IMG/VR virus record: IMGVR_UViG_3300033121_001133
Span: 64,001-128,000 of that record
Length of the DNA: 64,000 nucleotides
Origin: a virus
Lineage: Duplodnaviria; Caudoviricetes
Direction: 5' to 3' (one strand)
The translations under genes were made by a program, and so were the position numbers. Positions 45,281 through 62,795 of this stretch are shown here, piece after piece (positions within the stretch are counted from its first letter, which is position 1; the number at the start of each line of letters is the position of its first letter). A model generated the notes under the pieces. That model worked only from the letters and a program-made list of their open reading frames with translations, was not told where the DNA came from and did not search any database.

Positions 45281-46762
45281 ATGATAGGTTACATTCCCAA
45301 ACAGGAGAGAAAGACTCTTCTATTTCTTGCTGATGACTGCCGACTGCCTTCAGGAATTGGCACAATGACTAGAGAGCTAATTGTAGGCAATGCTCATATC
45401 TTCAACTTTGTGCACGTAGGTGCTGCAATCAATCACCCAGACGTGGGTAAGATACTAGACCTATCCCAAGAGATTAACAAGGAGGTAGGTATCGATGACG
45501 CTAGTGTGTTGATCTACCCCTATAATGGGTATGGAGATCCGGATCTAATTAGAACTCTTATGTCTAGGCATAAGATCGATGGGATTGTTCACTTCACAGA
45601 TCCTCGATATTGGATCTGGTTGTATCAAATGTCAGCAGAGCTCAGACAGGAGGTTCCCATATTCTACTACCACATCTGGGACGATGCACCCGCTCCACAT
45701 TACAACAAGCCTTTCTATCAGAGTTGCGATCTGCTGATGGGCATCAGTAAACAGTCTGATAATCTAGCTAAGCTAGTGTTAGGGGAGGGTCAGTATATTG
45801 AGTTGACCCCAGATACCCCTTCGGAGAAGGTGGCAGAGCCTCTACCTAAGGTATGCTATGTGCCTCACGGCATCAACACCAAGTACATCTACCCCGTTCC
45901 TAGGGACCATCAATCGGTACGAGAGATTCGCAAGCAGCTGTTTGGTGCCGATGATCCAGAGTTTGTCCTACTGTACAATAACAGGAACATCCGCAGGAAG
46001 ATGACTTCCGACGTAGTATTAGCTTTCAGTCAATTCCACGATCAGCTTCCCCCCGATCAACAACAAGGTGTAAGGCTTGTACTGCATACTCAGCCTGTGG
46101 ATGAGAATGGTACCGATTTGATAGCGTTGATTGAAGATCTATTCCCTCATGTGAAGAGTAAGATCGTATTCACAAACGCTCGATACTCAGCTACGGACTT
46201 AAACTGGCTGTATAATGCTTGCGATGTGGTGATTAACATTGGCTCTAATGAGGGGTGGGGATTGTCAAGTACAGAAGCAATGCTTGCCGGGGTTCCCGTA
46301 ATCAATAATGTCACAGGAGGTCTGCAGGATCAACTGAGATTTGAAGATGATAAGGGTAACTGGATAAACTTCAACGCCAAGTTTACCTCCAACCACTCGG
46401 GTCGAGTAAAAGCTCACGGTAAATGGGGCAAGCCCGTATTCCCAGCTGCCGTTAACCTGCAGGGTAGTATTCCAACCCCGTACATCTTTGATGATCGAGT
46501 TAATGTCCTGGATGTGGTTGAGGCGATTCAGTATTGGCATAATATGCCCAGGCAACAGCGAATTGATTGTGGCCTTGAGGGTAATCGTTGGGCTCACAGT
46601 GAGGAGGCAGGTCTAACTGCGGTAGTAATGTGTGATCGATTCGCCAGAGCAATCAACCAAGTGCTGAGGAATTGGGTACCACCTCCGCGATTTAAGATGT
46701 ACAGTGTGGAGGAGGAGCTAAAGAGTATGAGTAACAAACAATCTGGAATCTGCCTAAAATGA
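45281..46762 (+). CDS. GT-B glycosyltransferase (GT4-like)
   Basis: VPHGI, NRNIRRK, LYNA.DV, NEGWGL...EAM..G.PVI. Confidence 0.85.
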   Translation: MIGYIPKQERKTLLFLADDCRLPSGIGTMTRELIVGNAHIFNFVHVGAAINHPDVGKILDLSQEINKEVGIDDASVLIYPYNGYGDPDLIRTLMSRHKIDGIVHFTDPRYWIWLYQMSAELRQEVPIFYYHIWDDAPAPHYNKPFYQSCDLLMGISKQSDNLAKLVLGEGQYIELTPDTPSEKVAEPLPKVCYVPHGINTKYIYPVPRDHQSVREIRKQLFGADDPEFVLLYNNRNIRRKMTSDVVLAFSQFHDQLPPDQQQGVRLVLHTQPVDENGTDLIALIEDLFPHVKSKIVFTNARYSATDLNWLYNACDVVINIGSNEGWGLSSTEAMLAGVPVINNVTGGLQDQLRFEDDKGNWINFNAKFTSNHSGRVKAHGKWGKPVFPAAVNLQGSIPTPYIFDDRVNVLDVVEAIQYWHNMPRQQRIDCGLEGNRWAHSEEAGLTAVVMCDRFARAINQVLRNWVPPPRFKMYSVEEELKSMSNKQSGICLK

Positions 46763-46806
46763 CTGCTTTTGCTTATACAAGCTCTACCTATAGCAAAGGG
46801 AGTCAT
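46759..46806 (+). promoter_or_regulatory. Translation-repressing hairpin with the late motif CTACCTATAG (46784-46793) in its loop
   Basis: ATGACTGCTTTTGCT (46759-46773) pairs with AGCAAAGGGAGTCAT (46792-46806): 15 positions with 1 mismatch and 1 G-U; ends 1 nt before ATG 46808. Confidence 0.75.
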
Positions 46807-46807
46807 A

Positions 46808-47494
46808 ATGAAATGTGCTAATTCAGCTTGTGGTAATCAAACCAGGACGAGCATCGCTAGATACTGCTCTCGCTCCTGCCACATGATAGTTAGAAACGCA
46901 GAGGCTAGGACAGGGACGAATAAACCTTGCGCATGCTGCGGTACTCCAATCTATGTGGCGAAGTGGGAATCTCCAAGTAAAAGATACTGCAGTCGTGAGT
47001 GCGTAAGAATCTCCTCATTAGTAGATCGTGTAGAGGTGCTATGCTCATTAGAGGGTTGTTGTAATATAGTTCTAAGAACTGAGAGGGAATCCCTTAAAAC
47101 AGAAAAACACTACTGCTCAAGAACGTGTGCGAGTATAGCAGGTAGGGTTGCAGCTCAGGAGAGAGGTAAAAAGACTGGAACTAAGCCTGAACTGGCCTTT
47201 GCGCAGTGGTGTGAGAAAAATGACATCCAATATAAAGCTCAGTTTGCTGTTGCATGGCAGAGGGGGTGGAAAAAGTGGTATGATTTTTATTTACCTGACT
47301 ACCATTTGCTAGTTGAAATTGATGGTGTATATTGGCACGGAAAGGGTTTATCTGACAGCGAGCTTAATGAGCAGCAGAATAATACTAGGAGAAATGATAT
47401 CGAAAAGAATAAATTAGCTTGCGAACGTGGATTTAACCTATTACGTATTTGGGAAGATGAAATAGCTAGCTTCGATTTACGAAAACTAATATGA
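46808..47494 (+). CDS. Zn-finger-repeat plus DUF559/Vsr-like endonuclease (homing-like insertion)
   Basis: Three YCSR.C repeats; T.PE, YDFY, VEIDG.YWH, ND..KN..A...G..LLRIWE; AT-richer than its neighbours; sits between two GT4 genes. Confidence 0.8.
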   Translation: MKCANSACGNQTRTSIARYCSRSCHMIVRNAEARTGTNKPCACCGTPIYVAKWESPSKRYCSRECVRISSLVDRVEVLCSLEGCCNIVLRTERESLKTEKHYCSRTCASIAGRVAAQERGKKTGTKPELAFAQWCEKNDIQYKAQFAVAWQRGWKKWYDFYLPDYHLLVEIDGVYWHGKGLSDSELNEQQNNTRRNDIEKNKLACERGFNLLRIWEDEIASFDLRKLI

Positions 47495-48810
47495 GTATGA
47501 ATAAACCAGTTCTTCTTTTGATGTGTCCGTGTAGTACAGTTTCTGGCTATGGGGCAAGAAGTAGAGATATTGCCTTAGCCCTAATACAATCGGGGACGTA
47601 TGACGTCAAGATCTGGAGTACTCGATGGGGTAATACTCCGATGAATGCTCTAGATCCCTCTAACAGCAAGCATAGGCTGATCATAGACAGACTGCTAACA
47701 GAGCCTACCTTGAAAAGCCAACCTGAGGTGTTCGTCCAGATAACAGTTCCGAACGAGTTTCAGAAGCTAGGTAAGTTCAACATAGGCATAACTGCAGGCA
47801 TAGAGACAACCCTGGCCTCAGCTCCTTGGATCGAGGGGTGTAATAGAATGGACCTAGTGCTAACCTCTTCTGAGCATTCTAAGAAAGTGCTACAAGAGAC
47901 TGTGTGGACGGAGACCAACCAACAACAACAACCTATACGGGATGTTAAGCTGACTACTCCTATAGAGGTGCTGTTTGAGGGTGTGGATTTGGAGGTGTAC
48001 CATAAGACTGCCCAGATACCAGCCTCAGTACAGGAGCAAATGAAGCAAGTCAAAGAGAAGAGTGCCTTCCTATTTGTAGGTCACTGGCTTAATGGTGAGT
48101 TAGGGCAAGATAGAAAGAACGTAGGACTGTTAATTCGCTGCTTCATTGAGGCATTTAAGAACAAGACTTCCTACAATCAGCCAGCGCTAATTCTAAAGAC
48201 TTCGCACGCTGATTTTAGTCCTGTTGATCGTGCCAACCTTCTGAAGAAGATTAAGCGAGTGATTGAAACGGTGCCTGATCTGAAGTTCACTCCACCAATA
48301 TATCTGCTGCACGGTGACTTAACGGATCAGGAGATGAATTCTCTGTATAATCACCCTAAGATCAAGGCTCATATAACCCTAACCAAGGGGGAAGGTTATG
48401 GGAGACCGCTTGCCGAAGCTAGCCTATCCGAGAAAATCGTGATTGCACCAAACTGGTCCGGGCTAATAGACTTCATTAAGCATGGAGTACTGCTACCAGG
48501 TAACCTAACCCAGGTTCATCCGTCCGCGGCATGGGATCAAGTTATCCTGAGAGAGTCTCAGTGGATGTCAGTCGCTCCAGATCAAGCAATCGCGGCGATG
48601 AGGGATGTGATTGATAATCCCGAGAAGTATCAACCTCTTGCCAAGAAGCAGGCTTCCCTAATCAAGGATCAGTTTAGCTATCAAGCAATGGCAGACAGGC
48701 TATCTAGTATACTTAAACAATATGTCCCAGAGTTTGCTCAGCTGGTACCGCTAAAGCTGCCACAACTAGGCAATCAGCTTCCTAAACTACAACCACTGAA
48801 GCCACAATGA
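47491..48810 (+). CDS. GT-B glycosyltransferase (GT4-like)
   Basis: SGYG..SR, FLFVGHW, DRKN, GEGYG.P..EA. Confidence 0.85.
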   Translation: MSMNKPVLLLMCPCSTVSGYGARSRDIALALIQSGTYDVKIWSTRWGNTPMNALDPSNSKHRLIIDRLLTEPTLKSQPEVFVQITVPNEFQKLGKFNIGITAGIETTLASAPWIEGCNRMDLVLTSSEHSKKVLQETVWTETNQQQQPIRDVKLTTPIEVLFEGVDLEVYHKTAQIPASVQEQMKQVKEKSAFLFVGHWLNGELGQDRKNVGLLIRCFIEAFKNKTSYNQPALILKTSHADFSPVDRANLLKKIKRVIETVPDLKFTPPIYLLHGDLTDQEMNSLYNHPKIKAHITLTKGEGYGRPLAEASLSEKIVIAPNWSGLIDFIKHGVLLPGNLTQVHPSAAWDQVILRESQWMSVAPDQAIAAMRDVIDNPEKYQPLAKKQASLIKDQFSYQAMADRLSSILKQYVPEFAQLVPLKLPQLGNQLPKLQPLKPQ

Positions 48811-49028
48811 TCACATTCTTCATAACCACCTACACTAGCTTTTCCCATAACGTGGTAATTGCCTACCTATCGTCCAACGACGCGCAGTACACCTACGACG
48901 TTATTCAAACGGAGCAGTGCTACTCGCGATTCAGAGTGACTGCTTCCAATCAGCTCTTTCTAACTCTTCGGGACCTTAACAATCAAAAAGACGGAGTATC
49001 ATTTACACTTGAGTATGGAGCCAACTAA
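48807..49028 (+). CDS. Hypothetical protein
   Basis: ATGA-coupled small ORF. Confidence 0.4.
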   Translation: MITFFITTYTSFSHNVVIAYLSSNDAQYTYDVIQTEQCYSRFRVTASNQLFLTLRDLNNQKDGVSFTLEYGAN

Positions 49029-49497
49029 GATTACCTGCCCCCACTGTCAGCAGCCAAACTGCTTTAAGGAGACAACTCCCCATCGGGATCAGCATGCTGA
49101 GAGTTTTATGTGCCTAGATTGTGGTTACACTTCTACTTCTCTTAATCTGGAGGATTCGCCGATCGTCAGGCAGTATGAGGAGACTGCTCCAGAGCTGTTC
49201 AAACTTCTGCGTTGGATTGATCCGCAAACTAAGCTAGTCTGGTATCCGATCGTACTAAACTTCCCATCATTTGGTATGATCTTTCCGGACGGTACTAGTG
49301 TGGAGAACTGGCAGTGGATGTCAGCTCCCGCTGTGGACATTCCATTTAACGATCAGAAGAAGTATCCCATTCCAGGAGCTCCGAACAAGTATTACACCAA
49401 GAGAGTGGATTTGAAGAAGGGGAAGTACTTTCCTCCCGATCAATTCTACCAAGCAGCCAAGTTTATTGGATTTGTGCAATCAGACACCAACCCTTAA
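49015..49497 (+). CDS. Zinc-finger hypothetical protein
   Basis: CPHC and CLDCGY motifs. Confidence 0.6.
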   Translation: MEPTKITCPHCQQPNCFKETTPHRDQHAESFMCLDCGYTSTSLNLEDSPIVRQYEETAPELFKLLRWIDPQTKLVWYPIVLNFPSFGMIFPDGTSVENWQWMSAPAVDIPFNDQKKYPIPGAPNKYYTKRVDLKKGKYFPPDQFYQAAKFIGFVQSDTNP

Positions 49498-49500
49498 GCG

Positions 49501-50148
49501 ATGCCTAGTATCAGTTATGCAATTACGGTGTGTGATGAGGTAGAGGAGGTCATAAGGTTGATTAAGCAGTTGCGTGCACATTTAGTTTGGCAGCAACGCC
49601 CCCACGACGAGATAGTTGTGTTGTGGGATTGTGCCAAGGGAGGTAAGCGGATGCAGTCTTTACTTGAGAGATTTGAGAGGAATGGAGCCATCAAACTGGC
49701 TAAGGATAAGTTCCAAGGTCATTTTGGAGACTGGAAGAACAAGCTAACCAGTCACTGTTCGGGAGACTATATTTTTCAGATCGATGCTGACGAATTTCCT
49801 ACGAACACCTTAATTGATTGCCTACCCTCTCTATTAGAGAGTAATCCTGGCATTGAAGTGTACCTTGTCCCTAGAATCAACATGGTTGAGGGCATAACTC
49901 CGCACCACATAGAGAAGTGGGCCTGGAAAGTTAGTCCTGAAGGGTGGGTTAATTTTCCCGACTACCAGTGGCGGATATACAAGAATAAGCCGTATATTAG
50001 GTGGGTCAACAAGGTGCATGAGCGGCTGGATGGATTTAAGACTTTCGCAGTACTTCCACCACAAGAGAGCTACTGCTTACACCACCCCAAGACAATAGAG
50101 AGACAGGAAAGACAAAACGCACTGTATGATACCTACCAAGCTACCTGA
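49501..50148 (+). CDS. GT2-family glycosyltransferase
   Basis: ISYAITV, GDYIFQIDADE, PDYQ.RI, VHE. Confidence 0.85.
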   Translation: MPSISYAITVCDEVEEVIRLIKQLRAHLVWQQRPHDEIVVLWDCAKGGKRMQSLLERFERNGAIKLAKDKFQGHFGDWKNKLTSHCSGDYIFQIDADEFPTNTLIDCLPSLLESNPGIEVYLVPRINMVEGITPHHIEKWAWKVSPEGWVNFPDYQWRIYKNKPYIRWVNKVHERLDGFKTFAVLPPQESYCLHHPKTIERQERQNALYDTYQAT

Positions 50149-51154
50149 GATCTCTGAATCTCCTTCTATACCAGAACTGAAGATAGCCTTCCTTACTGAG
50201 ATGGACTTTGTGGGTCAAGTACCCTATGACCATCCTAATATGCGCACTGAGTTTGCTTGGATGCATGCCCTAGGCGCCGATCACATCCCCATCAGGAAGT
50301 GGACTATGATAGGAGGTTATGATCACGTGTTTGTGATCTTCCCTAAAGGTAAGGTGTTCCTATCTGCAGAAGGTACTCAGCTAGTGGATGACACTAACCC
50401 AGTTAGTGACCTACTTGCAGATCAAATCATACCAAATCTCAAGCAACGTAATAAGAAGGTGCATTATGTGCAGGAAGGCCCCTCGTGGTGGTTCACCAAC
50501 TATAACCTCACCGATCAGGTCAACTTCTACAATATGATCACTCATTGTGATACGATCTTCACGCACAATCGGGCTGATATCCAGTACTTCAAGGGGCTAT
50601 TCCCCGCTCACCCTGTCCATGTGATTTCAACCCTGATGATTGACTCTCTGATTGCAGATGTCAAGCCTCTTAGGTTAGACAAGGCAATCATTGGAGGTAA
50701 TATGTCTAGGTGGTATGGGGGGTTTGAAAGCATGGTAGTGGCTCAAGAGTTTAAGGTGCCAATATCAGTTCAAACTTCTCATGCAACTCGCCCAGGTGAG
50801 GACCAATTGGTGATGCCAATCCCCCGATTGCAGTGGGTGGACTGGATCAAGAAGCTGAGCGAGTTCAAGTACGCAGTGCACATGATGCCTACTGTGGCAG
50901 CTGGTACATTTGCATTGAACTGTGCCTACCTCGGCATTCCTTGCATTGGCAACAAGCTAGTAGATACCCAGGAAGATTGCTTTCCTCGCCTATCCGTAGA
51001 TGTACACGACATACAGAAAGCGTGTACATTGGCTAGGGATCTTAAAGAGGATCCGGACTTCTACGAGGAATGTAGTCAGTACGCTAAGAAGGCCTATCAA
51101 AGGCACTTCTCACTTGAGTTCTTCTTGGAGGCAATGCACTATCAACTAGCATGA
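50126..51154 (+). CDS. Putative glycosyltransferase (GT-B-like)
   Basis: AGTF.LNCAY.GIPCIG resembles a GT-B donor-binding segment; cluster context. Confidence 0.5.
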   Translation: MIPTKLPEISESPSIPELKIAFLTEMDFVGQVPYDHPNMRTEFAWMHALGADHIPIRKWTMIGGYDHVFVIFPKGKVFLSAEGTQLVDDTNPVSDLLADQIIPNLKQRNKKVHYVQEGPSWWFTNYNLTDQVNFYNMITHCDTIFTHNRADIQYFKGLFPAHPVHVISTLMIDSLIADVKPLRLDKAIIGGNMSRWYGGFESMVVAQEFKVPISVQTSHATRPGEDQLVMPIPRLQWVDWIKKLSEFKYAVHMMPTVAAGTFALNCAYLGIPCIGNKLVDTQEDCFPRLSVDVHDIQKACTLARDLKEDPDFYEECSQYAKKAYQRHFSLEFFLEAMHYQLA

Positions 51155-51816
51155 GCAACATCACCGCAGTAATAACTTCCTGTGGTAGGTTTGATTTGCT
51201 GGGTATGACCATCAGCAGTCTAGTGAGACATGCTGATCTGGAATTTGAGCGGATCATTGTGGTTGACAACTCTACCCTTCCAGATTTAGAAGATCAAATT
51301 AGCAAGATAGCAATTCAAGTCAACAAACAGCTCCACCTACTAGCCAACCCCATCAACATAGGACAAGTTGCAGCGATTGATCTTGCCTACTCCTATGTAG
51401 AGACCGACTACATTTTCCACTGTGAGGATGACTGGGAGTTCTTTGATACTGGGTTCCTAACGCAGTCTAAACAACTACTAGAAGATGTTGACAACATAAT
51501 CAACGTCAACCTACGTATTCGCTTCGATGGAGAGAAAGGCAGCATGCATCCAATATCGGAGCTGAGGATGTCTCCTAATGGAGTACCTTATCACCAATAC
51601 CAACTAAACTACCTAGGAGCTTGGCATGGGTTCTCATGGAATCCAGGTCTAAGGCGCAGGAGAGACTACGACCTGATCAAACCATATAAGCAGTATGGTG
51701 AGGAATCCCGAGTAGGGCAGAAGTATAAAGAGTTAGGCTTCGTTGCCGCATGCCTTGAAAAGTCGTATTGTAAGCACATAGGCACTCACAGCTCTACACC
51801 CCTATCCAATCAATAG
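51151..51816 (+). CDS. GT2-family glycosyltransferase
   Basis: TSCGR.DLL, IVVDN, YIFHCEDDW, FS.NP, HIG. Confidence 0.8.
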   Translation: MSNITAVITSCGRFDLLGMTISSLVRHADLEFERIIVVDNSTLPDLEDQISKIAIQVNKQLHLLANPINIGQVAAIDLAYSYVETDYIFHCEDDWEFFDTGFLTQSKQLLEDVDNIINVNLRIRFDGEKGSMHPISELRMSPNGVPYHQYQLNYLGAWHGFSWNPGLRRRRDYDLIKPYKQYGEESRVGQKYKELGFVAACLEKSYCKHIGTHSSTPLSNQ

Positions 51817-51820
51817 AATA

Positions 51821-52774
51821 ATGGCAAAAGACAGAGTACTAATTACTGGCGGAAGCGGCTTCTTGGGAAGGAACTTAGCAATTAAACTCAAGGAGCAGTA
51901 TGATGTATACTTGGGAGCTCGAAACAACAAGCAGAATTTCAATGCTCAGGGACTAACTGGGGTCAGTGTACTTCCTATGGATGTATCCAGTATGGAATCT
52001 ACACGCGATGCTATTAGGTCTATCAGGCCTAATGTTATCATCCATGCTGCAGCTACTAAGTTCGTCGATCTATCAGAGAAGTTTCCACTGGAGACAATCG
52101 ATGTCAACGTTGTTGGCTCTGAGAACGTAGCACGTGCCGCAATGGATTATGGCGTTGATGTTGTGATTGGCATTTCAACTGATAAGGCATGCCCTCCAAT
52201 TCGGAACATCTACGGACTATCTAAGGCAACCATGGAGAGGATGTTCTGCTTGCTTGATGGTAAGACCAGGACCAAGTTTGCTTGTGTGCGTTATGGAAAT
52301 GTAGCATGGTCTACAGGCTCAGTTCTCCCAATCTGGAAGAAGATGCAGCAAGAGGGTAAGGTAATTGGCACTACGGGGCCAGATATGCGTCGATTCTTCT
52401 TCACCGTAGATGATGCAGTACAGCTAGTAGAGACTGCAATCAACAATATCAACACAATCAGGGGTCAGATACTGTCACGCAATATGAAAGCTGCGTTGAT
52501 TAGGGATTTGCTTAATGTCTGGGTAGAGGAGTTTGGTGGTGAATGGGCTTTGATCGAAGGACGTCCAGGTGAGCGGAATGATGAGTACCTGGTGGGGGAG
52601 ACTGAGCTGGAGTACTGTCGTGTACTAGACTTCAAAGGAGTGCAGCACTTCTTGATTAGTCCTAACACCAAGGTAGATAAACCATTTCCTTACGTGTTCA
52701 CCTCTAGGGAGGCTACTAAGCTAACTAGGCAAGAGATGGTTGCTATCATAAAAGCACAACCGGACACTCTATGA
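51821..52774 (+). CDS. NDP-sugar 4,6-dehydratase (CapD/PseB-like SDR)
   Basis: TGGSGFLG, HAAA.K.V, STDKA, YGLSK, RYGNV..S.GSV.P, M.RFF. Confidence 0.88.
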   Translation: MAKDRVLITGGSGFLGRNLAIKLKEQYDVYLGARNNKQNFNAQGLTGVSVLPMDVSSMESTRDAIRSIRPNVIIHAAATKFVDLSEKFPLETIDVNVVGSENVARAAMDYGVDVVIGISTDKACPPIRNIYGLSKATMERMFCLLDGKTRTKFACVRYGNVAWSTGSVLPIWKKMQQEGKVIGTTGPDMRRFFFTVDDAVQLVETAINNINTIRGQILSRNMKAALIRDLLNVWVEEFGGEWALIEGRPGERNDEYLVGETELEYCRVLDFKGVQHFLISPNTKVDKPFPYVFTSREATKLTRQEMVAIIKAQPDTL

Positions 52775-53469
52775 CATTCAGGCACGCTCTAATACTAGCT
52801 GCTGGGCGAGGGGAAAGGATGATGCCTCTAACTGCCAACAAACCAAAGGCTTTGGTGACGTTAGGCAACAAACCCCTAATTCAGTATACCATCGATACCC
52901 TTCGCAAGCAGGGAGTAGAGCGGATCTATGTCACTTATGGGTGGCAGGGTAAGATGCTGGTTGACTATCTACACAATAAGGTAGAGGGTTTGATCAACAC
53001 TACCAATCAAGATAATGCTGGGTTCCTTTCAACTAGTGTGCTGCAGTATGTGGATGCCCCGATGCTGGTTTGTCCTTGTGATTTGACATTCGACATAGAT
53101 CTCGCAGCCCTAAAGTTGGAGCATACCCTAGCTGTTAAGCGTCCAATTTACCTTATACCAGTACAAGCTTCTAAGAACGCTGACTTCATTCACACCGGTG
53201 ACTTTCTCGCAGTCACCGATATCACTAGGGAACGGAAATCCGAGTTATGTGCCAGTGGTATACAGATCATCAACCCCTTGATGCTAAACCAGTGGATTCA
53301 CCCTCCCTCCAACTTCTATGGTGTGTGGACCAACTTAATTAAGCTAGGAGGTTTGGGTGTCACTACTACCACACCTTCTAACTGGAGTTCGTATGACAGT
53401 GAGGAGGATGTATTTAGATGGCACTACCCCACTGATCCCCAGGATGTGTGGCCTTCAACACCTCAGTGA
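52771..53469 (+). CDS. Sugar-phosphate nucleotidyltransferase
   Basis: LAAGRGERM.PLT..KPK.L. Confidence 0.85.
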   Translation: MTFRHALILAAGRGERMMPLTANKPKALVTLGNKPLIQYTIDTLRKQGVERIYVTYGWQGKMLVDYLHNKVEGLINTTNQDNAGFLSTSVLQYVDAPMLVCPCDLTFDIDLAALKLEHTLAVKRPIYLIPVQASKNADFIHTGDFLAVTDITRERKSELCASGIQIINPLMLNQWIHPPSNFYGVWTNLIKLGGLGVTTTTPSNWSSYDSEEDVFRWHYPTDPQDVWPSTPQ

Positions 53470-54296
53470 TGGAAAAGCTATCGATCCGCGATCAACTGTT
53501 CCATCACGCTTATTCCACCAGCAATTGGTTTAAGCCAATAGAGTTTGAGTGGGATTTCGTTAATCTACACAACGACTTCGTGTTCCTAACAGATCAGAAT
53601 GTCTTTCAAGTAAGCGATCCGGAACTCAAGGATTACAGGAAGTACGCTTGGTTAGTTGAGTCTCCGGTGATCACACCCAAGTCTTATCAATTTGTAGCAC
53701 AGAATCCTACCCTATTTGATAAGATCTTTACTCACAGTGAGGAGCTGTTGAAGCATGCTCACGCGCACCTTGTACCAATAGGGGGCTGCCACCTCGATCA
53801 AGCTGATATTAGCCTAGACCACACCAAGACCAAGCTGGTCTCAATGATGTACTCTAACAAGAATTCAGTAGATGGACACAATCTACGTCACCAAATAGCC
53901 AACACACCAGGCATCAATCAACTAGTAGATCTGATGGGTAGTGGGGTGGATGGTAGGCATGTTAAGAAGATTGAGTCTTGCAGAGACTATGCCTTTTCGG
54001 TAGTGATAGAGAACTGCAAGCAAGGATACTACTTCACGGAGAAGATTGTGGATTGCTTCCTAACAGGTACAATTCCAATTTACTGGGGCACTTCCTACAT
54101 TGGTCAGTTCTTCAATGCACGAGGATTTCTAACCTTCAGTACAGCAGACCAGCTTATTAAGGCACTGGGAGATCGCGAGCGGTTAGCTGAGTTCTATAAT
54201 GACCATCACGACGATGTTATTGAGAACTTTCGTTTAGCTCATCAATATAAGGTGGGTGATGACTACCTCTACAAACACTTCAGACAGATACTATGA
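53469..54296 (+). CDS. GT10-like (fucosyltransferase-type) glycosyltransferase
   Basis: Y.FS..IEN....YFTEK..D....GTIPIYWG. Confidence 0.8.
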   Translation: MEKLSIRDQLFHHAYSTSNWFKPIEFEWDFVNLHNDFVFLTDQNVFQVSDPELKDYRKYAWLVESPVITPKSYQFVAQNPTLFDKIFTHSEELLKHAHAHLVPIGGCHLDQADISLDHTKTKLVSMMYSNKNSVDGHNLRHQIANTPGINQLVDLMGSGVDGRHVKKIESCRDYAFSVVIENCKQGYYFTEKIVDCFLTGTIPIYWGTSYIGQFFNARGFLTFSTADQLIKALGDRERLAEFYNDHHDDVIENFRLAHQYKVGDDYLYKHFRQIL

Positions 54297-55045
54297 AGAT
54301 TGCTCTGTGCATATCAGGTCAGCCTAGAGGATTAGATCACAACATTCCTCGCCTACTAGAGGGGTTAGTTTGGCCAAGCAAGATTAAGGACATCTTCATC
54401 CACACCTGGTTTGATCAGAGCTTGGTAGGTGTGCCTTTCTCTTCCGCTCAACCCAACCAAACAGGTAAGGTTGGAGTGTGGGCCGCCGACACCATTGAGT
54501 TACTGAAGAGCCTCAATCCGATTCGATTGGAGGTGGAGTATCCTAAGTTATTTGAGGAGTTCAGTCACCTACCCAATCTCCCATCTGCTATACAGACGCA
54601 ACTTGCCTCTAACACATATTCTGTGTATAGGGCCAACAGACTGAAATGTGAGCATGAGCATGTTACTGGCACTAAGTACGACTTAGTAATACGAGCTCGT
54701 ATAGATTGTGCGTACAGTGAGCCCTATGATATCACTAAGTACTTGGATCCTAAGTGGGATACTGAGGATGTGCTACACGTACCCTACAAATTCCAGCACA
54801 TGAGGATGGATGATTCCTATCCATTGCTAGGAGGCGGTACATATAGCTCGATGTCAGACACGTTTGCTTACGGTCGATCTGAGGTTGTCGATAAGTTCTG
54901 TTCAGTCTACCCTCAATTTGAGAATATACATCACCACATTGTACCCTATCAGTATGGTGAGTGCTTCTTTGGCTACCAGACTAGGTACCGCCACAAGATC
55001 AGGATCAGCATGCAACCCATAGAGTACCAACTAGTGCGAGGATGA
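54293..55045 (+). CDS. Putative glycosyltransferase-like protein
   Basis: KIALCISGQPR, FIHTW, YDLVIRAR.D, D.FAYG; cluster context. Confidence 0.55.
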   Translation: MKIALCISGQPRGLDHNIPRLLEGLVWPSKIKDIFIHTWFDQSLVGVPFSSAQPNQTGKVGVWAADTIELLKSLNPIRLEVEYPKLFEEFSHLPNLPSAIQTQLASNTYSVYRANRLKCEHEHVTGTKYDLVIRARIDCAYSEPYDITKYLDPKWDTEDVLHVPYKFQHMRMDDSYPLLGGGTYSSMSDTFAYGRSEVVDKFCSVYPQFENIHHHIVPYQYGECFFGYQTRYRHKIRISMQPIEYQLVRG

Positions 55046-55782
55046 ACATACTATTTCCTATAGCAGGACAGGGATCTAGATTCAAAGCTGGGGGTTACCA
55101 GGTACCCAAGCCGCTGGTACTGGTTAATGGTACTACCCTACTAGAGCACTCCATAAAGACTTTGGGATTGGATGGACATTACATCTTTGTAACGTTACGA
55201 TATCCCAATGCTCGGTTCAACAATACAATCAGGCAGATCATAGACCGTAGTTGCCCTTCCTATAGCATCGTGGAGCTTGAGGCCCCAACTCAAGGGGCAG
55301 CTCAAACTTGCTTAGCTGCTTCACATCTGATAGATAACGCTACTCCATTAGTAGTCACTAACTGCGATCAGTATCTTAGATGGGACCCCAACCAACTAAT
55401 CAAGGAGATTCAGCTACACGATCCCGATGCATGTGTCAGTTTATACGACCACCAGGATATTGAGCTAGATAAGCCCAGTAAGTATGCTTTTGTGGAGCTA
55501 GATGACAAAGGCTATGCAGTTCGGTTTTGTGAAAAGTACGCTATCTCACCCAATGCGTTAAATGGAATCCACTATTGGAAGTCTGGGGAATTATTCGTAA
55601 GTTACGTAGCGCTGATGATGGCCAATAATATCAGAGTCAATGGAGAGTACTATATTTCACCTTCCCTTAATCTCCTAATCAATGCTGGAGGACGAATCAC
55701 TACTTTCAAGATGGAACCCGGCCAATACTTCTCGTTAGGAAGTCCACAAGAAATAAACAACAACAAACAACACATAAACTAG
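55042..55782 (+). CDS. Nucleotidyltransferase-fold protein (BcbE-like)
   Basis: IAG.GSRF...GY..PKPL, T.GAA.T, NCDQ, EK..IS..A..G..Y, NGEYYI.P. Confidence 0.8.
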   Translation: MNILFPIAGQGSRFKAGGYQVPKPLVLVNGTTLLEHSIKTLGLDGHYIFVTLRYPNARFNNTIRQIIDRSCPSYSIVELEAPTQGAAQTCLAASHLIDNATPLVVTNCDQYLRWDPNQLIKEIQLHDPDACVSLYDHQDIELDKPSKYAFVELDDKGYAVRFCEKYAISPNALNGIHYWKSGELFVSYVALMMANNIRVNGEYYISPSLNLLINAGGRITTFKMEPGQYFSLGSPQEINNNKQHIN

Positions 55783-55790
55783 AGTTCAAT

Positions 55791-56402
55791 ATGGAGAGTG
55801 CTAAGGATAAGTTACAGCGGGTTTGCTATGACATCGTGCAAGGTAAACCTGTGGTAGTTGTAGATGATTACGATAGGGAATATGAGGGAGATATTGTACT
55901 CTCGGCCGAGAAGGCCACAGCTGAGAATCTGATCTTCTGCATGCGTCACGCAAAGGGTCTAATGTGTATACCCTTGCTGCAAGATACTTGCGATCGCTTG
56001 GAGATCCCAATGATGCACTCCAATAAGAACGACAAGTATGGAACCCCCTTTGCGTCCTCTATTGATGCAATTGAAGGAGCTACTACAGGAATGTCTGTGC
56101 ACGACCGCCTCAAGACCATCTCCATCGTGGTAAATGATAAGTCTCAACCTAATGAGCTAGCCCAACCGGGTCATATGTTCCCATTGCGAGCACGACCAGG
56201 ACTTTTGAAAGAGCGAAGAGGCCATACCGAAGCTTCAATCGAGTTGATGAAGGCCAGCAACCTCAAACCAATAGCAGTAATCGTAGAGATTATGAATGAG
56301 GATGGCACTATGATCAAAGGTGAAAAATTGGAGCAATTTGCGAAGATCTACAATCTGAATATGATATCAGTAGAGGAGATCCATGACGCAGTTTATCAAT
56401 AG
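55791..56402 (+). CDS. ribB: 3,4-dihydroxy-2-butanone 4-phosphate synthase
   Basis: DD.DRE.EGD, GL.C, TTG.S..DR, PGH.FPL, RRGHTEA, EI.NEDG. Confidence 0.93.
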   Translation: MESAKDKLQRVCYDIVQGKPVVVVDDYDREYEGDIVLSAEKATAENLIFCMRHAKGLMCIPLLQDTCDRLEIPMMHSNKNDKYGTPFASSIDAIEGATTGMSVHDRLKTISIVVNDKSQPNELAQPGHMFPLRARPGLLKERRGHTEASIELMKASNLKPIAVIVEIMNEDGTMIKGEKLEQFAKIYNLNMISVEEIHDAVYQ

Positions 56403-57342
56403 AGCATACAATACTCTTAAGATCAGGCCTGACAATCCGGCTGTGATTACTAAGAGAAGCTGCGATAGTAGGCTTAGGGATGAGATTGCCTACTATCGCA
56501 GCCTCCCTCCTCAGCAAGCAATCTACTTTCCTAGGATAGTGGAAGGTGGTCAGGGGGAGAGTGTAGAGTTTGAGTTGACAATGGAATACTATGCCTATGA
56601 CAATCTAGGCAACCTAATGATCAACCAACAACCTAACCCCGATCTCTGGGCAAAGGTGTTCAACTTCATAGCATCATTCTCCCACCAGGATGAACAGAGG
56701 CCTCCTGATCCTGCTAGCTGTGGGAAGATGTTCATTCAGAAGACAGAGATCGAGTACCATAAATTGATCAACAACTTCGAGTTTTTCCGTCAGTTTGATC
56801 GGACTGAATCAGTGATCACTCTCAATCAGGAACCTCTCTACAGTTTTGACATGATTTGGCCTACGATTCGGCGGTTCCTACGGGACGAATGTCTGAGCGA
56901 GCCTCTTCGTATCATACACGGAGACCTATGCTTCAGCAACATACTGTATGGTCAGAATCCAATCAGCGGAGATGTAATATTGAAGTTCATCGATCCGCGC
57001 GGGTCTTTTGGTGATCAGACCATATATGGGGATCCTTATTACGATCTCGCAAAGCTACTACACTCTTGTGACGGAGGTTATGAGTACTTCATTACAGATA
57101 ACTTTCAACTTACCCAACGAGGTAGTGACTTCTGGTTGGTTTATGGCAACAACAACGGAGCTCAGATTGCTGATATCTTCACCCAGACCCTTGACCTATC
57201 CTACAACACCAAGAAGATTTTAGCACTGCAGGGACTAATCTTCATCGGTATGTGCGCAAGGCACTACGATTCACTAGAAAGGCAGAAGGCTATGTTTCTG
57301 ACTGGACTACGCATTCTAAACACAGTAGCTTCTACCTTATGA
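56383..57342 (+). CDS. APH/choline-kinase-like phosphotransferase (capsule-locus type)
   Basis: R.YN, L.MEY, HGDLCFSNIL, FIDPRG, GD.YYDLAKL.HS. Confidence 0.8.
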   Translation: MTQFINRAYNTLKIRPDNPAVITKRSCDSRLRDEIAYYRSLPPQQAIYFPRIVEGGQGESVEFELTMEYYAYDNLGNLMINQQPNPDLWAKVFNFIASFSHQDEQRPPDPASCGKMFIQKTEIEYHKLINNFEFFRQFDRTESVITLNQEPLYSFDMIWPTIRRFLRDECLSEPLRIIHGDLCFSNILYGQNPISGDVILKFIDPRGSFGDQTIYGDPYYDLAKLLHSCDGGYEYFITDNFQLTQRGSDFWLVYGNNNGAQIADIFTQTLDLSYNTKKILALQGLIFIGMCARHYDSLERQKAMFLTGLRILNTVASTL

Positions 57343-57686
57343 GATTCTGCTTCGATCTAGACAATACCCTGTGTGAGCTTAAGCAGGAAGGTCAAAGCTA
57401 CAGTCAGCTAGACCCAAAGCCAGGTGCTGTTAGGTATTTGCAGAAACTTGCACAAAAAGGTCACTACATCATTATCTACACAGCCCGTCACATGGCAACC
57501 TGTGGTGGTAACCTAGGTCGAATCACAGCTCTTCAAGCACCAGCTACCATTGCCTGGCTAGCCAAACACCAAATACCGTATGATGAATTGCTATTTGGAA
57601 AACCGCTGGCAGATTACTATATTGACGATAAAGCAATCGCCTTCACTGACTTCTCTACTCTTGAACAACACCTACCTCTAACATGA
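57339..57686 (+). CDS. HAD phosphatase (BcbF/EcbF capsule-type)
   Basis: FDLDNTLC, YTAR, WL..H.IPYDEL.FGKP..D.YIDDKA; ATG 57339. Confidence 0.85.
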   Translation: MRFCFDLDNTLCELKQEGQSYSQLDPKPGAVRYLQKLAQKGHYIIIYTARHMATCGGNLGRITALQAPATIAWLAKHQIPYDELLFGKPLADYYIDDKAIAFTDFSTLEQHLPLT

Positions 57687-58489
57687 GACCATTCTTCATC
57701 GACACCGCCAATACTAAATACATCGAGACTTTGTGGGAGCAACTGCAATCCCATGTAGATCCTCAAAATGTTGTTGGAGTTACAACCAACCCCAATGCAT
57801 TCTTGAAGACCTCGGATCTCACTCTACCACAGTGGTTTAGTCGAACTAAGGAACTATGCAAGCTGGTAACCCAGATTAGAGGAGATGATCGAGGTGTAGT
57901 ATACATACAGGGTCCTAGCTCTAAGATGACGCCACAAGGTACTTTGGATTACGCTAAGAGGGTGAGGGAGCTTGGTGATGGTCAGACCAAAGTAGGTCTG
58001 AAGATACCTCCATACAAGGACATACTGAGGATTGTACCCCAGCTATCGACAATTGTTGATGTCAATGTCACTGGTGTTGCTGACGCAGGAACAGCCCTGA
58101 GGTGTGCATCGTATGGGGTGCGCTATGTTAGCGTTATACCAGGTAGAATGGAGGAAGCTGGAATTGATGCACCACGTCAAATTGACTATATTCGGAGCGC
58201 CAATCTATTTGGTACTGATATTATTGCTGGTAGCATGAGGACCATCGCAGGTCTGAAGTGGACCATTGAATATGGTACAGTTCCCACTATTGGAGAGAGG
58301 GTGTGGAACTTACTGCTGGAGTCTCCAGCAGCTTTGGAGATGATTGCATCTTTGGAAGTTAAGTCAGACTTTCCGGCATCAGAGTTTTGTCCTGTAATCG
58401 ATAGCCGTAGTTTTAAGCTATCACATGCGTTCTTCCAGCAGATGGATCAATGTGGACAACAAGCAGCTGAATCACTATGGACACTGTAG
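57683..58489 (+). CDS. Transaldolase / fructose-6-phosphate-aldolase-family protein
   Basis: FFIDTAN, GVTTNP, KIP (Schiff-base Lys), NVT, Y.S...GR, I.AGS.R. Confidence 0.8.
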
Positions 58490-59568
58490 TAGTTACCGGT
58501 TGTGGGGGTTTGATTGGTCTGGAAGCCGCTGAGTTCTTTCTTTCTAAGGGATTGAGGGTTGTGGGGATCGACAATAACCTCAGAGAGTATTTTTTTGGTC
58601 AAGATGGTTCAGTCGAGTCTAACTTAGACAAGCTCAGACAGCTGCCCAACTTCCACTTACATTATGTGGACATTAGGGATAGAGCCAATTTAGAGTCCAT
58701 ATTCTCAGTAAGGGCTGGAGACATCAAGGCAGTCATTCATACCGCGGCTCAACCATCGCATGATTGGGCAGTCAAGGAGCCTCTAACGGACTTCAACGTT
58801 AACGCTACCGGAACACTTAACCTACTAGAGTTAACTCGCAAGTACGCTCCTAAAGCTACCTTTATCTTCACTTCAACTAACAAGGTGTATGGGGACAGCC
58901 CAAATCAACTACCCCTATTAGAGTTAGAGTCTAGATACGAGATTGACTACAACCACCCATATTTCTGTGGTATACCTGAGACACATACTATTGACCAAAG
59001 CAAGCACAGTCTATTTGGCTGCTCAAAGCTCGCAGCGGACATCTACGTACAAGAGTATGGTAGGTACTTTGGGATGAACACTGTAGTATTCCGTGGGGGA
59101 TGTCTAACAGGATCAAAGCATCGTGGAGCTGAACTTCATGGCTTTCTAAATTACCTAGTCAAGTGTGCCATCGAAGGAAAGACCTACACCATCCATGGCT
59201 ACAAAGGCAAGCAGGTAAGGGATAACATACACTCCAGCGACCTGGTTGCAGCATTTTATGAGGTGTACCAAAGCCCTAGATCTGGAGAAGTCTACAACAT
59301 CGGCGGAGGACGTGATTCTAATTGCTCTGTGTTGGAGGCTATCGAAATGATCGAACAGACCGTGGGAACTACGATGAAGATTGTGTATAGTGATACTAAC
59401 CGGAGCGGGGATCATCAATGGTGGATTAGTGATACAGCTAAGTTCCAACGACACTACCCTAATTGGAGTTGCAAATACAGCATCAAGGGCATTATAGAGG
59501 AGTTAGTAGCAAACTACAAGCATGAGCAACTACCAGTCTCAGTTTCAGCAGGACAGGATTCTGAATGA
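58477..59568 (+). CDS. NAD-dependent epimerase (CDP-paratose 2-epimerase-like)
   Basis: [50 protein letters not shown]. Confidence 0.88.
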
Positions 59569-60169
59569 TCACTTCTTTCATAATAGGAGAGGAGGTGTAT
59601 TTGTAGATATAGGAGCTCACGATGGTAAGACCCTAAGCAATACTTACTTCTTTGAGAAGGAGTTGGGTTGGACAGGGTTGTGTGTAGAGCCCTTGCCATC
59701 AGTATTTGAGCAGCTCAAGGCTAATCGCGATTGCTTAGTGGTTAATGGATGTGCTTGGAATCAAGACACTGTTAAGACTTTTCGATCAATTGAAGGCTAC
59801 TCAGAGATGTTGAGTGGGTTAGTGGATACCTACCCCAATCAACACATTAACAGGATTGATCAAGAGGTTGAAGCTCATGGAGGAAAGGTAGTGGATCTTG
59901 AGGTAACGTGCTACAACATCAACTCTCTATTGCTGAAGCACAAGCTAACTGAGATTGATCTGATCAGTATTGACGTAGAGGGTAGTGAGCTAGAGATTCT
60001 TGCTGCTATCGACTACGATCAGATCAAGGTTAACATAGTGTTGGCTGAGAATAACTACGAAGACGACAACCTACGGAGCTTCATGCAGAGCATGGGTTTT
60101 GATCCAGTCGGTAGGATCGAGATCGATGATGTGTTCGCTAGAATAGGATGGGATCATACCACCAAGTAA
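59522..60169 (+). CDS. FkbM-family methyltransferase
   Basis: [13 protein letters not shown]...[16 protein letters not shown]. Confidence 0.88.
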
Positions 60170-60801
60170 TGGAGATACAGTACATACAGCAAAGGCTTCA
60201 GTCAATCGCCAACCCGATCATCTTTGACATTGGTGCATGCAACTTTGATGATAGTATGGCATTCAAGAGTGCATTTCCAAATGCTACTGTGATTGCCTTC
60301 GAGCCCGATCAGGATAACCTAGACGACTACGCTAGCAAAGCCTATGATGTGGGAATCTCAATCGCTCCAATTGCACTATCCGATCAGGATGGTGCAACTA
60401 CCTTCTTTCCTAGTGACAACCTCAACGGAAAGGTGTGGCGGTACTCAGGTTCTATAATGAAGCCTAGGATGAAGCCCGGTAGTAGAGAGGGTGTTAATCA
60501 CCCTGGACTGCTATTCGATGATAAAGGCTACGAAGTACAGACTGTGCGTCTTGATACTTTCTGTAAGCTGAATTCAATCAACCGAATTGACCATATTCAC
60601 ATCGATGTACAAGGCGCTGAGATGAAGGTTCTCAGTGCAATGGGCGATCTGAGGCCTCAAACCATCTTTGCAGAGACTTGTGAGTTTGATACCTACGAAA
60701 CTGGAGTTACATTAGAGTCATTTGATGCCTTCATGCAACAACTAGGTTATCGAGTGGAGAGGAGGTTTGAGTACGACACACTATACGAGTATGGAAAATA
60801 G
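60169..60801 (+). CDS. FkbM-family methyltransferase
   Basis: FDIGA, AFEP, RLD, HIDVQGAE. Confidence 0.85.
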   Translation: MEIQYIQQRLQSIANPIIFDIGACNFDDSMAFKSAFPNATVIAFEPDQDNLDDYASKAYDVGISIAPIALSDQDGATTFFPSDNLNGKVWRYSGSIMKPRMKPGSREGVNHPGLLFDDKGYEVQTVRLDTFCKLNSINRIDHIHIDVQGAEMKVLSAMGDLRPQTIFAETCEFDTYETGVTLESFDAFMQQLGYRVERRFEYDTLYEYGK

Positions 60802-61588
60802 GTTCAAGATCGTTATACCCTCCTACAATAACCAGGAGTGGGTTGAGTATAACCTAGCAAGCATACTCAATCAAACCTACACCAACTATGAGGTGCTGTA
60901 TATCGATGACGCTTCAACTGACAATACCCTAGACAAGGTCAAGGAGATTGTAGGTAACCTCCCTAACTGGAAGGTGGTAAGCAATCCAGTTAATATGAAG
61001 AGAGGGTTCAATATATCTCCTCAGAACCCTCACATAGTTTCGTTGATGAAGCACGACAGCGATATATTAGTGTTCGTTGATGGTGATGATTGGTTAGCAG
61101 ACAACTACGTACTTGAGAATCTCAACCGATTCTACAACAGAGAGAGCCCATGGATGACTTATGGTCGGTATGTGGATTATCCAGAGTATACCTACCCCTC
61201 AACGCAAAATACCGCCTATCCAGAGCACGTCCACGCTAACAAGCTCTACCGTAAGGATGTGTGGCGAGCCTCTCACCTTAGAACATTCAAATGGTTCCTA
61301 TACCGGCAAATCAAGCCCGAAAGTCAAAGAATCCACCAAGTAGGCAACTACTACTACCATGCAGAGGATCTCGCTACTACCTTCCCTTGCTTAGAGATGT
61401 GCCCTCCGGAAAAGATTGGAGTTCTAGATTTTGTTGCGTATGTTTTCAACAACACTAAGGGCAATAGTGCAAGGTCGCAGGAACGTACACACAAGGCTGA
61501 GAATGAGGGCCTTGAGTGGGAGATCCGATCAGCTACCCCCTATCCAACACTAAATGAGAATCAGCTTCATTATACCCTCCCGCAATAA
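60791..61588 (+). CDS. GT2-family glycosyltransferase
   Basis: IPSYN, IDDASTD, VDGDDW, SHLRTF. Confidence 0.88.
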   Translation: MENRFKIVIPSYNNQEWVEYNLASILNQTYTNYEVLYIDDASTDNTLDKVKEIVGNLPNWKVVSNPVNMKRGFNISPQNPHIVSLMKHDSDILVFVDGDDWLADNYVLENLNRFYNRESPWMTYGRYVDYPEYTYPSTQNTAYPEHVHANKLYRKDVWRASHLRTFKWFLYRQIKPESQRIHQVGNYYYHAEDLATTFPCLEMCPPEKIGVLDFVAYVFNNTKGNSARSQERTHKAENEGLEWEIRSATPYPTLNENQLHYTLPQ

Positions 61589-62795
61589 CCTACGTTACTT
61601 GCAGCAGGCCGTTGCTTCAATACAAGCGTGCTATGGTGATAGCCACGATATAGTGCTACTAGATGATGCTTCCACTGATGGAACCTGGGAGTGGATCAAG
61701 AGCCTTCAAGGGGCCAATATAATCAAGTACGGAAACATAGGTCCAGAGCGAGTTGGTCACACCATCCTGTACGACAAGGGAGTGGAGCTATCGAGGACCA
61801 AAGTGTTCACTATCTTCCATGCAGATATGATCACTACTCCCAACCACATACCCAACATGCTTAAGCATTTGAAGCGATATCATGTGGTTTGTGCAACCAG
61901 GGTGGAGCCACCACTTCACCCCCCAGGCCCAGAGAAACATGTTAAGATGTTTGGTCTAGAGCCTGAGGAGTTCAAGCAGGATCAGTTCATGCAGTTTGTT
62001 GCGCAAGAAGAGATTACTAAGCAAGACCGAGTCACTAAGGGCATCTTCGCTCCATGGTGCATGTACAAGAAGGACTTCGCCGCCATAGGAGGGCATGATC
62101 CTCTATTTGCACCAATGGAGCTGGAAGACTCCGACATCTTTAACAGAATGTATTTAGCTGGCTATAAGCTAATACAATCTTGGGACTCGCTGGTATACCA
62201 CATGACTTGTCGTGGAAGTAGGTTCAAGGGTGGATTGGAGATCGAGGCTGAGATTCCTCTCCCAGATGGTACTACCTGGTATAAGCCTAAAGACTCGGAG
62301 GAATACAAAGCTCTTCGAGCAATTAAGTTTCGAGAGTGGTGGAGAAAATGGGGATCTAATGTACTACACGATCAGTTTATGATGCCGATTGTTGCTCCTA
62401 AGTATGACATCGGATTCTATGTGGAGCACTGCACTGAGGATAAGCTGAGATTACTAGAGCCTTGGTGTTCGACGATCCATACCGATGAGCCATGGTACAA
62501 CTACCGAATCAAAGAGCAGCCAAATACCAAATTCGATCTCTACAAGAGGATACAGTCTACGGCTACTCTGCCAAGTAATGAGATTGTGGTGTATTTTGAT
62601 GCACAGCAATTAGCTGCACGGAGCTGGGAGATCATTCAAAATCTAGGAGCAATTATTGAATCCAGTGGTACGATCGGACTGTTTCAGCTGGATATATTCC
62701 AAGTCGAGATCAAGGGTATGACCCGCCACGAACAAGATCTAATTGTATGCGATACTACATCCTACTACCAGGAGACAGAGAAGAGGACTGTGTGA
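61554..62795 (+). CDS. GT2-family glycosyltransferase
   Basis: IPSRN, DDASTDGT, HADM, GG.D..F...EDSD, VYH...RGSR. Confidence 0.85.
   Translation: MRISFIIPSRNNLRYLQQAVASIQACYGDSHDIVLLDDASTDGTWEWIKSLQGANIIKYGNIGPERVGHTILYDKGVELSRTKVFTIFHADMITTPNHIPNMLKHLKRYHVVCATRVEPPLHPPGPEKHVKMFGLEPEEFKQDQFMQFVAQEEITKQDRVTKGIFAPWCMYKKDFAAIGGHDPLFAPMELEDSDIFNRMYLAGYKLIQSWDSLVYHMTCRGSRFKGGLEIEAEIPLPDGTTWYKPKDSEEYKALRAIKFREWWRKWGSNVLHDQFMMPIVAPKYDIGFYVEHCTEDKLRLLEPWCSTIHTDEPWYNYRIKEQPNTKFDLYKRIQSTATLPSNEIVVYFDAQQLAARSWEIIQNLGAIIESSGTIGLFQLDIFQVEIKGMTRHEQDLIVCDTTSYYQETEKRTV

Follow-up and report, generated by a model that had tools for sequence, protein, structure and literature searches.

The closest described counterpart of the system considered here, a gene cluster in which ribB, encoding 3,4-dihydroxy-2-butanone 4-phosphate (DHBP) synthase, stands among genes for sugar activation in a virus of the Caudoviricetes (IMG/VR virus record IMGVR_UViG_3300033121_001133), is the UDP-D-arabinofuranose pathway of Escherichia coli phage HY126, which has homologues in phages RB69 and DLP3. 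From work on HY126 it is reported that AfhE converts arabinofuranose-5-phosphate into the 1,5-bisphosphate, which loses its 5-phosphate through AfhF before AfhE completes UDP-arabinose (cited in PMC13326640). The stretch analysed here, called the window in the following, comprises 64,000 nucleotides, bases 64001-128000 of the 137-kb virus record, which is 81% complete; positions are those of the window unless another contig is named. A comparable order of reactions characterizes the biosynthesis of GDP-octose for lincomycin (LmbR/LmbN/LmbP/LmbK/LmbO) and of GDP- and ADP-heptose (GmhA/HddA or HldE/GmhB/HddC), in which a sugar phosphate, built for instance by the transaldolase LmbR, is passed on to an anomeric kinase, a HAD phosphatase, and a nucleotidyltransferase (NT). 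The scheme of a feeder enzyme acting together with a kinase, a phosphatase, and an NT is one that is already known, while the feeder pair and the aldolase chemistry found in the window are new.

The module of the window is formed by six genes (54293-58489, + strand) that are contiguous or overlapping and translationally coupled, and that probably encode a RibB-fed pathway to a nucleoside diphosphate (NDP) sugar. A sugar-phosphate NT (55042-55782; PF00483, E 2e-10) is followed by RibB (55791-56402; PF00926, E 6e-68), by an APH-fold small-molecule, putatively sugar, kinase (56383-57342; PF01636, E 2e-7), by a small AfhF/BcbF-like HAD phosphatase carrying the DxDxT motif (57339-57686), and by a Schiff-base aldolase with the fold shared by transaldolase (TAL) and fructose-6-phosphate aldolase (FSA) (57683-58489; PF00923, E 1e-11). 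The open reading frame of the HAD protein spans 57252-57686, and translation most likely begins with the ATG at 57339, which shares the sequence ATGA with the stop codon of the kinase gene and directly precedes the DxDxT motif (FDLDNTL). These five genes had been named in a first-pass annotation of the window, and all of them are confirmed by Pfam and NCBIfam matches at the positions given there, on the + strand; the set was incomplete, since a sixth, co-conserved gene of the DUF7796 family (54293-55045, with a 4-nt overlap with the NT gene) had been missed. That the six genes act together is strongly supported by their recurrence.

In fact, more than 180 relatives of the aldolase are present in a collection of 5.8 billion proteins, and the first four genomic contexts that were opened all contained an NT, RibB, a kinase of about 320 amino acids, a small HAD protein, and the aldolase together. 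When viral contigs were scanned with a profile of the aldolase, 46 loci emerged, and according to tblastn searches with the window proteins essentially all of 53 loci combine the aldolase with RibB, kinase, HAD, and NT, the absences being mostly at contig ends. The loci belong to 27 phage lineages at 80% aldolase identity, or 18 at 60%, and the genes are arranged in them in four or more different ways. When RibB instead served as the point of departure, the aldolase was detected in 47 of 49 viral loci, and the other two end, with their contigs, at or just after RibB. Furthermore, NT and RibB are fused in many uncultured phages and in one that has been cultured, Synechococcus phage S-SKS1 (NC_020851; SWZG_00042, 475 aa), which carries the module with the genes SWZG_00039 to SWZG_00042; a kinase-NT fusion of 570 aa occurs in locus L003 and an NT-HAD fusion in locus L051. 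Within glycan loci, RibB is therefore tied to aldolase, kinase, HAD, and NT by a near-obligate and reciprocal linkage, and an arrangement recurring in more than 50 independent loci is far beyond what chance would produce. Literature searches retrieved no paper on RibB in a glycan or nucleotide-sugar pathway, nor on this aldolase subfamily, and the papers mentioning S-SKS1 do not discuss the module.

The RibB of the window is canonical by sequence: it scores 199.8 bits against TIGR00506, over the equivalog cut-off of 177.45, and shares about 40% identity with the solved RibBs when aligned to the E. coli and Candida structures. The motifs DRExEGD, C, PGH-FPLRA, and GHTEA and the distal E are all kept and are invariant in 16 phage homologues, so that the enzyme is expected to convert ribulose-5-phosphate into DHBP and formate. 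The acidic loop of the window protein reads REYEGD, and its N-to-Y change was considered as a marker of specificity and dropped because it is not conserved in the family, whose consensus is RENEGD. The absence of other riboflavin genes, noted at first for the window, extends to the entire 137-kb record, in which no GTP_cyclohydro2, DMRL_synthase, Lum_binding, or RibD_C domain (corresponding to ribA, ribH, ribE, and ribD, respectively) was found; likewise, ribH and ribA, the two genes searched for in relatives carrying the module, are missing from the complete genome of S-SKS1, from a 218-kb genome with terminal repeats, and from a 90%-complete genome of 159 kb. That RibB does not serve riboflavin synthesis in this setting is strongly supported.

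The AlphaFold2 (AF2) model of the aldolase has a pLDDT of 95, and the best fold matches are transaldolases and engineered mutants mimicking FSA; the score against the FSA family TIGR00875 is 45 bits, with a cut-off of 246. The residues described below derive from the alignment to the Thermoplasma transaldolase (TacTAL) and from the conservation in 64 unique family sequences, in which D7, N36, Q76, K107, N128, T130, S150, I152, R155, and R186 are invariant and S184 is present in 63. The Schiff-base lysine is kept as K107, and the phosphate site R155, S184, and R186 aligns with TacTAL R135, S167, and R169. In all 64 sequences a glutamine, Gln76 (within YIQG in the window protein), occupies the position of the acid-base glutamate of TAL (TalB E96, TacTAL E60), and an isoleucine, Ile152 (within SVIPGR in the window protein), that of TacTAL Phe132, which corresponds to the FSA tyrosine (Y131). 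The first-pass annotation had read these substitutions in the window protein and concluded that it matched neither known type; this conclusion stands and applies to the whole family, which has neither the TAL glutamate nor the FSA tyrosine. At position 74, two residues before the glutamate position and on the same strand, TAL has a serine, for which 46 of the 64 sequences have Tyr, 17 have His, and one has Phe, so that the subfamily is marked by the signature (Y/H)-x-Q ... S-x-I-P-G-R. S150 aligns with TalB Ser176, a position that contacts the C1 hydroxyl of the donor and is occupied by Ala in FSA; in the A129S variant of FSA the serine binds the donor C1-OH.

In comparison to TAL (TalB, TacTAL) and FSA, the module aldolase shares the fold, the Schiff-base Lys, the Asp, Asn, and Thr residues, the Ser of the S-P-F/Y-V-G-R motif, and the Arg/Ser/Arg phosphate site; it differs from TAL in the replacement of Glu by Gln, as in FSA, from FSA in the replacement of Tyr by Ile, and from both in the new Tyr/His two residues before the Gln and in a conserved C-terminal extension. 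Judging from the alignment, Tyr/His74 is a candidate for a relocated acid-base residue, the invariant change from Phe/Tyr to Ile could make room for an extra methyl group, and the enzyme would represent a third catalytic configuration in the TAL/FSA fold, invariant across the subfamily. The latter is sharply delimited: in a search of 1.84 billion proteins, the representatives at 50% identity that reach E<=1e-30 number 116, and no more than 355 hits reach E<=0.001. It is distinct from the usual cyanophage transaldolase, since S-SKS1 also carries a normal, separate talC.

The kinase, the HAD phosphatase, and the NT constitute the activation part of the module. The kinase retains K24, E34, HGDxxxxN, and D204, invariant residues that coincide with the motifs of active APH-fold kinases, and its AF2 model (pLDDT 90) matches the folds of APH, 5-methylthioribose (MTR) kinase, NahK, maltokinase, and FN3K; the fold search returned only generic matches to APH, MTR kinase, and NahK, which do not indicate the substrate. 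By tblastn the kinase has matches in 320 phage records, mostly of Straboviridae. In particular, hhalign matches the kinase profile with a probability of 97.9% (E 6e-13) to residues 209-431 of gp042 from Serratia phage X20, a 564-aa NT-kinase encoded between an arabinose-5-phosphate isomerase and the 121-aa HAD protein gp041, with which the window HAD shares 36% identity (E 5e-21). The NT has as best NCBIfam matches the sugar-1-phosphate nucleotidyltransferases AglF, archaeal GlmU, HddC, and RmlA, all below their cut-offs, and as best PDB match the NDP-sugar pyrophosphorylase 4evw. The homology to the X20 proteins and the arrangement described for AfhE/AfhF strongly support the kinase, HAD, and NT as a general device converting a sugar omega-phosphate into an NDP-sugar, and with it a sequence of last three steps in which the anomeric position is phosphorylated, the distal phosphate is removed, and the nucleotidyl group is transferred.

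By analogy, the module would have in common with the AfhE/AfhF pathway the ribulose-5-phosphate start, the APH-fold kinase, small HAD, and NT, and the bisphosphate route to the NDP-sugar; moreover, the window kinase and HAD are homologous to their X20 counterparts, which lie in the same arrangement. The two systems differ in the feeder, which is an isomerase in the AfhE/AfhF pathway and RibB plus aldolase in the window, so that the sugar cannot be arabinose; in fact, no SIS isomerase is found among the co-conserved families or in the Pfam scans of the window genes from 47491 to 62795. They also differ in the fusion of NT and kinase, which are separate genes in the window (and fused in L003 and in bacteria), in the context, which is a DNA-modification cluster with a thymidylate-synthase homologue for AfhE/AfhF and a multi-glycosyltransferase locus of about 17 kb in the window, and in the transferase, a GT-B arabinosyltransferase in the former and a DUF7796 candidate in the latter. 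The GDP-octose and heptose pathways, in contrast, employ a SIS isomerase, a GHMP kinase, and a normal transaldolase with the catalytic Glu, and no RibB.

The AfhE/AfhF pathway activates an aldose. In the type B capsule of Pasteurella multocida, BcbE and BcbG are needed for the fructose side chain (PMC13552107), and by analogy a ketose substrate is possible for the module. The label of BcbE/BcbF-like genes given by the first-pass annotation holds insofar as EcbF-BcbF (TIGR01689) is the best curated family of the window HAD; the score of 78.5 bits is under the cut-off of 162, so that, by family score, the protein is no equivalog of BcbF, and the better-characterized relatives are of the AfhE/AfhF type, which weakens the analogy with fructose. 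An above-threshold member of TIGR01689 was absent from 400 sampled genomes.

On these bases a pathway can be outlined. RibB would convert ribulose-5-phosphate into DHBP and formate, and the Schiff-base aldolase would lengthen DHBP into a sugar phosphate able to cyclize; since DHBP alone can neither cyclize nor bear an anomeric phosphate, the chain-building role of the aldolase would be obligatory. DHBP is the methyl-ketone analogue of glyceraldehyde-3-phosphate, with a methyl group in place of the aldehyde hydrogen. This resemblance, together with the conserved phosphate site and S150 and the change from Phe/Tyr to Ile, favors a chemistry in which a dihydroxyacetone-type enamine, from fructose-6-phosphate or free dihydroxyacetone, would attack the carbonyl of DHBP; the phosphate site and S150 suggest, in particular, a dihydroxyacetone-type donor and a phosphorylated acceptor leading to a product of fructose-6-phosphate-like length. 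This donor would lead to a 4-C-methyl-hex-2-ulose 6-phosphate, analogous to fructose-6-phosphate, and glycolaldehyde as donor to a 3-C-methyl-pentose 5-phosphate, analogous to arabinose-5-phosphate. Successively, the kinase would phosphorylate the anomeric hydroxyl, the HAD phosphatase would remove the terminal phosphate, and the NT would generate the NDP-sugar, three steps modelled on the AfhE/AfhF UDP-arabinofuranose route; the DUF7796 protein and the neighboring glycosyltransferases and methyltransferases would finally build the sugar into a phage-directed glycan. The complete reading, to which a probability of roughly 0.3 is assigned, is that RibB has a second natural role, in which DHBP serves as electrophile for a new class of TAL/FSA-fold aldolases to give a C-methyl-branched sugar phosphate, without S-adenosylmethionine (SAM) or radical chemistry, that is then activated to an NDP-sugar of the glycans of many aquatic phages.

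Several considerations weigh against this reading. Thermodynamics disfavor the aldol addition to a ketone, and TAL/FSA enzymes are not known to catalyze it; for another aldolase, RhuA, donor additions to alpha-hydroxy ketones are known in vitro. The loss of both acid-base residues, the TAL glutamate and the FSA tyrosine, may also mean that the catalysis is not of the aldol type. The activation steps were compared through X20 homologues standing in for AfhE and AfhF, and the NT resembles the N-terminal domain of the AfhE type only at the level of the fold (BLASTP E 0.057). A fusion of the NT-RibB type is no proof of consecutive steps, the transferase role of DUF7796 derives from position and automatic cluster names, and the activities of all members, as well as the identity of the product, are predictions.

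A less likely alternative is the opposite polarity, in which DHBP forms the Schiff base at its C2 ketone and, as a nucleophile, is added to glycolaldehyde or glyceraldehyde-3-phosphate, yielding a 1-deoxy ketose branched with a 3-C-(phospho)hydroxymethyl group and activated at C2 by the kinase, HAD, and NT. DHBP is in fact a 3-substituted hydroxyacetone, and FSA-type enzymes accept hydroxyacetone, a 1-deoxy donor; the lost acid-base residues and the new Tyr/His74 could reflect a different abstraction of the proton, and all the linkage evidence fits equally well. However, the serine at the TalB Ser176 position, which is Ala in the hydroxyacetone-preferring FSA, argues for a donor with a C1 hydroxyl, the reaction would have to turn the nucleophilic carbon into a quaternary one, and the conserved distal phosphate site would need a second phosphorylated substrate, so that DHBP is unlikely to be the donor. 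Somewhat less plausible still is a parallel operation of the two enzymes, with the aldolase supplying an ordinary or higher sugar phosphate to the activation enzymes, for instance arabinose-5-phosphate from glycolaldehyde and glyceraldehyde-3-phosphate, or else a higher ketose (heptulose, octulose) of the kind that LmbR provides for lincomycin, and with DHBP ending up either as a substituent that is not a sugar or, much as in CDP-glycerol, as a C4 head group linked to an NDP. RibB-free modules of transaldolase, kinase, HAD, and NT are known for GDP-octose (LmbR/N/P/K/O), the NT-RibB fusions would suit a direct nucleotidylation of DHBP, and a second NT is present in the window (52771-53469) and in several other loci. 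Against this division of labor, the aldolase subfamily was never found without RibB, nor RibB without the aldolase, wherever flanking sequence was available; an ordinary TAL reaction would not lead one to expect invariance of the altered catalytic residues, the module has no conserved isomerase, and an acyclic C4 phosphate leaves the kinase and the phosphatase without an obvious role.

That RibB might be an ordinary auxiliary metabolic gene, which boosts the riboflavin of the host and lies beside glycan genes by accident, agrees with its canonical sequence and its score over the equivalog cut-off. This explanation is nevertheless highly improbable, considering the near-obligate and reciprocal linkage in 27 lineages and several gene orders, the fusion of RibB to NT or to NT plus kinase, its translational coupling to the module, and the lack of a partner riboflavin gene in four phage genomes. 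The repurposing of RibB to feed the synthesis of an activated unusual sugar, as suggested by the first-pass annotation, remains the best reading, as neither of the two findings that this annotation had named as refuting it, other rib genes in the genome and the want of a recurring linkage of ribB to glycan genes, was made; the deoxy or branched ketose that had been envisaged is retained as an unusual activated sugar, whose ketose nature and structure are conjectural, and a C-methyl-branched product is proposed only tentatively.

The sixth gene deserves separate consideration. Of 54 loci, 48 have between one and three tandem copies of a DUF7796-family gene directly beside the module, and 11 of 20 family members match PF25072 (DUF7796). 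Their neighbors in the Atlas are viral clusters automatically named 'capsular polysaccharide biosynthesis' or 'glycosyltransferase family', and the window protein is accordingly regarded as a putative dedicated glycosyltransferase for the product of the module. A sequence search of the PDB with DUF7796 gave no match, and a profile comparison with the WavE proteins flanking bacterial cassettes gave no significant one.

The activation part of the module has a wide distribution in bacteria, where at least 591 species genomes possess a member of the kinase family, nearly always with HAD and NT as neighbors in a polysaccharide locus. In the 80 loci inspected (L055-L134), the cassette generally consists of a fusion of an NT-like domain and kinase (about 550 aa), followed by a small HAD and a second NT; the HADs of bacterial cassettes score 70-79 bits against TIGR01689, like that of the window, and 78 of the 80 cassettes are devoid of RibB and aldolase. 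Eighteen of these loci have a gene for a WavE-family protein near the cassette, which in L083 and L130 immediately follows the NT. Apart from the AfhE/F and BcbE/F leads, the substrate of the bacterial cassette appears to be uncharacterized; a blastn search of E. coli genomes with an Enterobacterales cassette, aimed at a comparison with BcbE/F/G or the K4 genes, gave no match. With regard to annotation, S-SKS1 SWZG_00040 and X20 gp041 (118-121 aa) are recorded as 'phosphoheptose isomerase' and are in fact HAD phosphatases of the AfhF/BcbF type, SWZG_00042 is recorded as 'DHBP synthase' despite its NT-RibB fusion, and the kinase SWZG_00041 as hypothetical.

The two remaining bacterial loci, both on contigs of metagenome-assembled genomes (MAGs) and found through the kinase, contain RibB and the aldolase, and for this reason the module is not claimed to be exclusive to viruses. 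In the first (L055), on the Planctomycetota MAG contig JACQVS010000240.1, an 817-aa triple fusion RibB-NT'-kinase (L055:6483-8936) is followed by NT, HAD, and aldolase, with an RmlD-like reductase and a Zn-dependent dehydrogenase adjoining, at the end of a 63-kb contig; it may be a genuine bacterial version of the module. In the second (L059; G002:C73:3222-4051), from a Saprospiraceae MAG, the aldolase is split on a 7-kb contig into two frames covering residues 3-185 and 182-266, owing to a frameshift or an assembly error, and the locus is possibly phage-derived DNA in the MAG. A pattern scan for the aldolase in 185k bacterial and archaeal species genomes gave no match, the patterns being too narrow, and no further genome with the module was found among 400 Planctomycetota and 400 Bacteroidota sampled. 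The module is thus very rare in cellular genomes, with two MAG contigs, one of which has the split aldolase. A different elaboration is seen in L003 (GCA_902730705.1, contig CACVGE010000001.1, 252.8 kb), where a gene for a RuBisCO-large-subunit-like protein (L003:3137-4327; PF00016, E 4e-37) and a Methyltransf_24 gene stand between an NT gene and those for RibB, kinase-NT, HAD, and aldolase; this locus may represent a variant of the pathway acting on diketo or enediol phosphates.

In the window, the module belongs to a glycan locus of about 17 kb (45281-62795), whose genes are all co-oriented and, according to Pfam scans, include GT2, GT4, and GT10-like transferases, a PseB-like dehydratase, two NTs, short-chain dehydrogenases/reductases (SDRs), and two FkbM methyltransferases; the same scans detected no flippase, polymerase, or ABC exporter. 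The second NT (52771-53469) is MurU-like, and an SDR epimerase/dehydratase (58477-59568, + strand; PF01370 and PF16363) follows the aldolase as an accessory gene outside the conserved core, its close homologues (50-67% identity) adjoining the module in a few lineages only (L003, L009, L021, L050). The record also encodes a tail sheath (5058-7460), a ribonucleotide reductase, a family-A DNA polymerase (35584-37839), which shares 45% identity with that of Flavobacterium myophage vB_FspM_immuto, and a GroEL chaperonin (39121-40764; phrog_5725, E 3e-163). From the tail sheath and the polymerase likeness, the virus is a large myophage, probably with a host in Flavobacteriia, while among cultured phages the nearest one with the module is a siphophage of cyanobacteria, so that the module appears to move horizontally between unrelated aquatic phages.

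If the proposed route is correct, DHBP synthase would for the first time be known to serve a purpose other than making flavins, and there would be a new natural route to a branched or deoxy sugar, in which aldol chemistry on a C4 methyl ketone takes the place of methyl transfer or ring contraction. The aldolase would provide a third catalytic solution within the TAL/FSA fold, of interest for biocatalysis with ketone electrophiles, and a signature sugar would be defined for the large glycan loci of cyanophages and flavobacterial phages.

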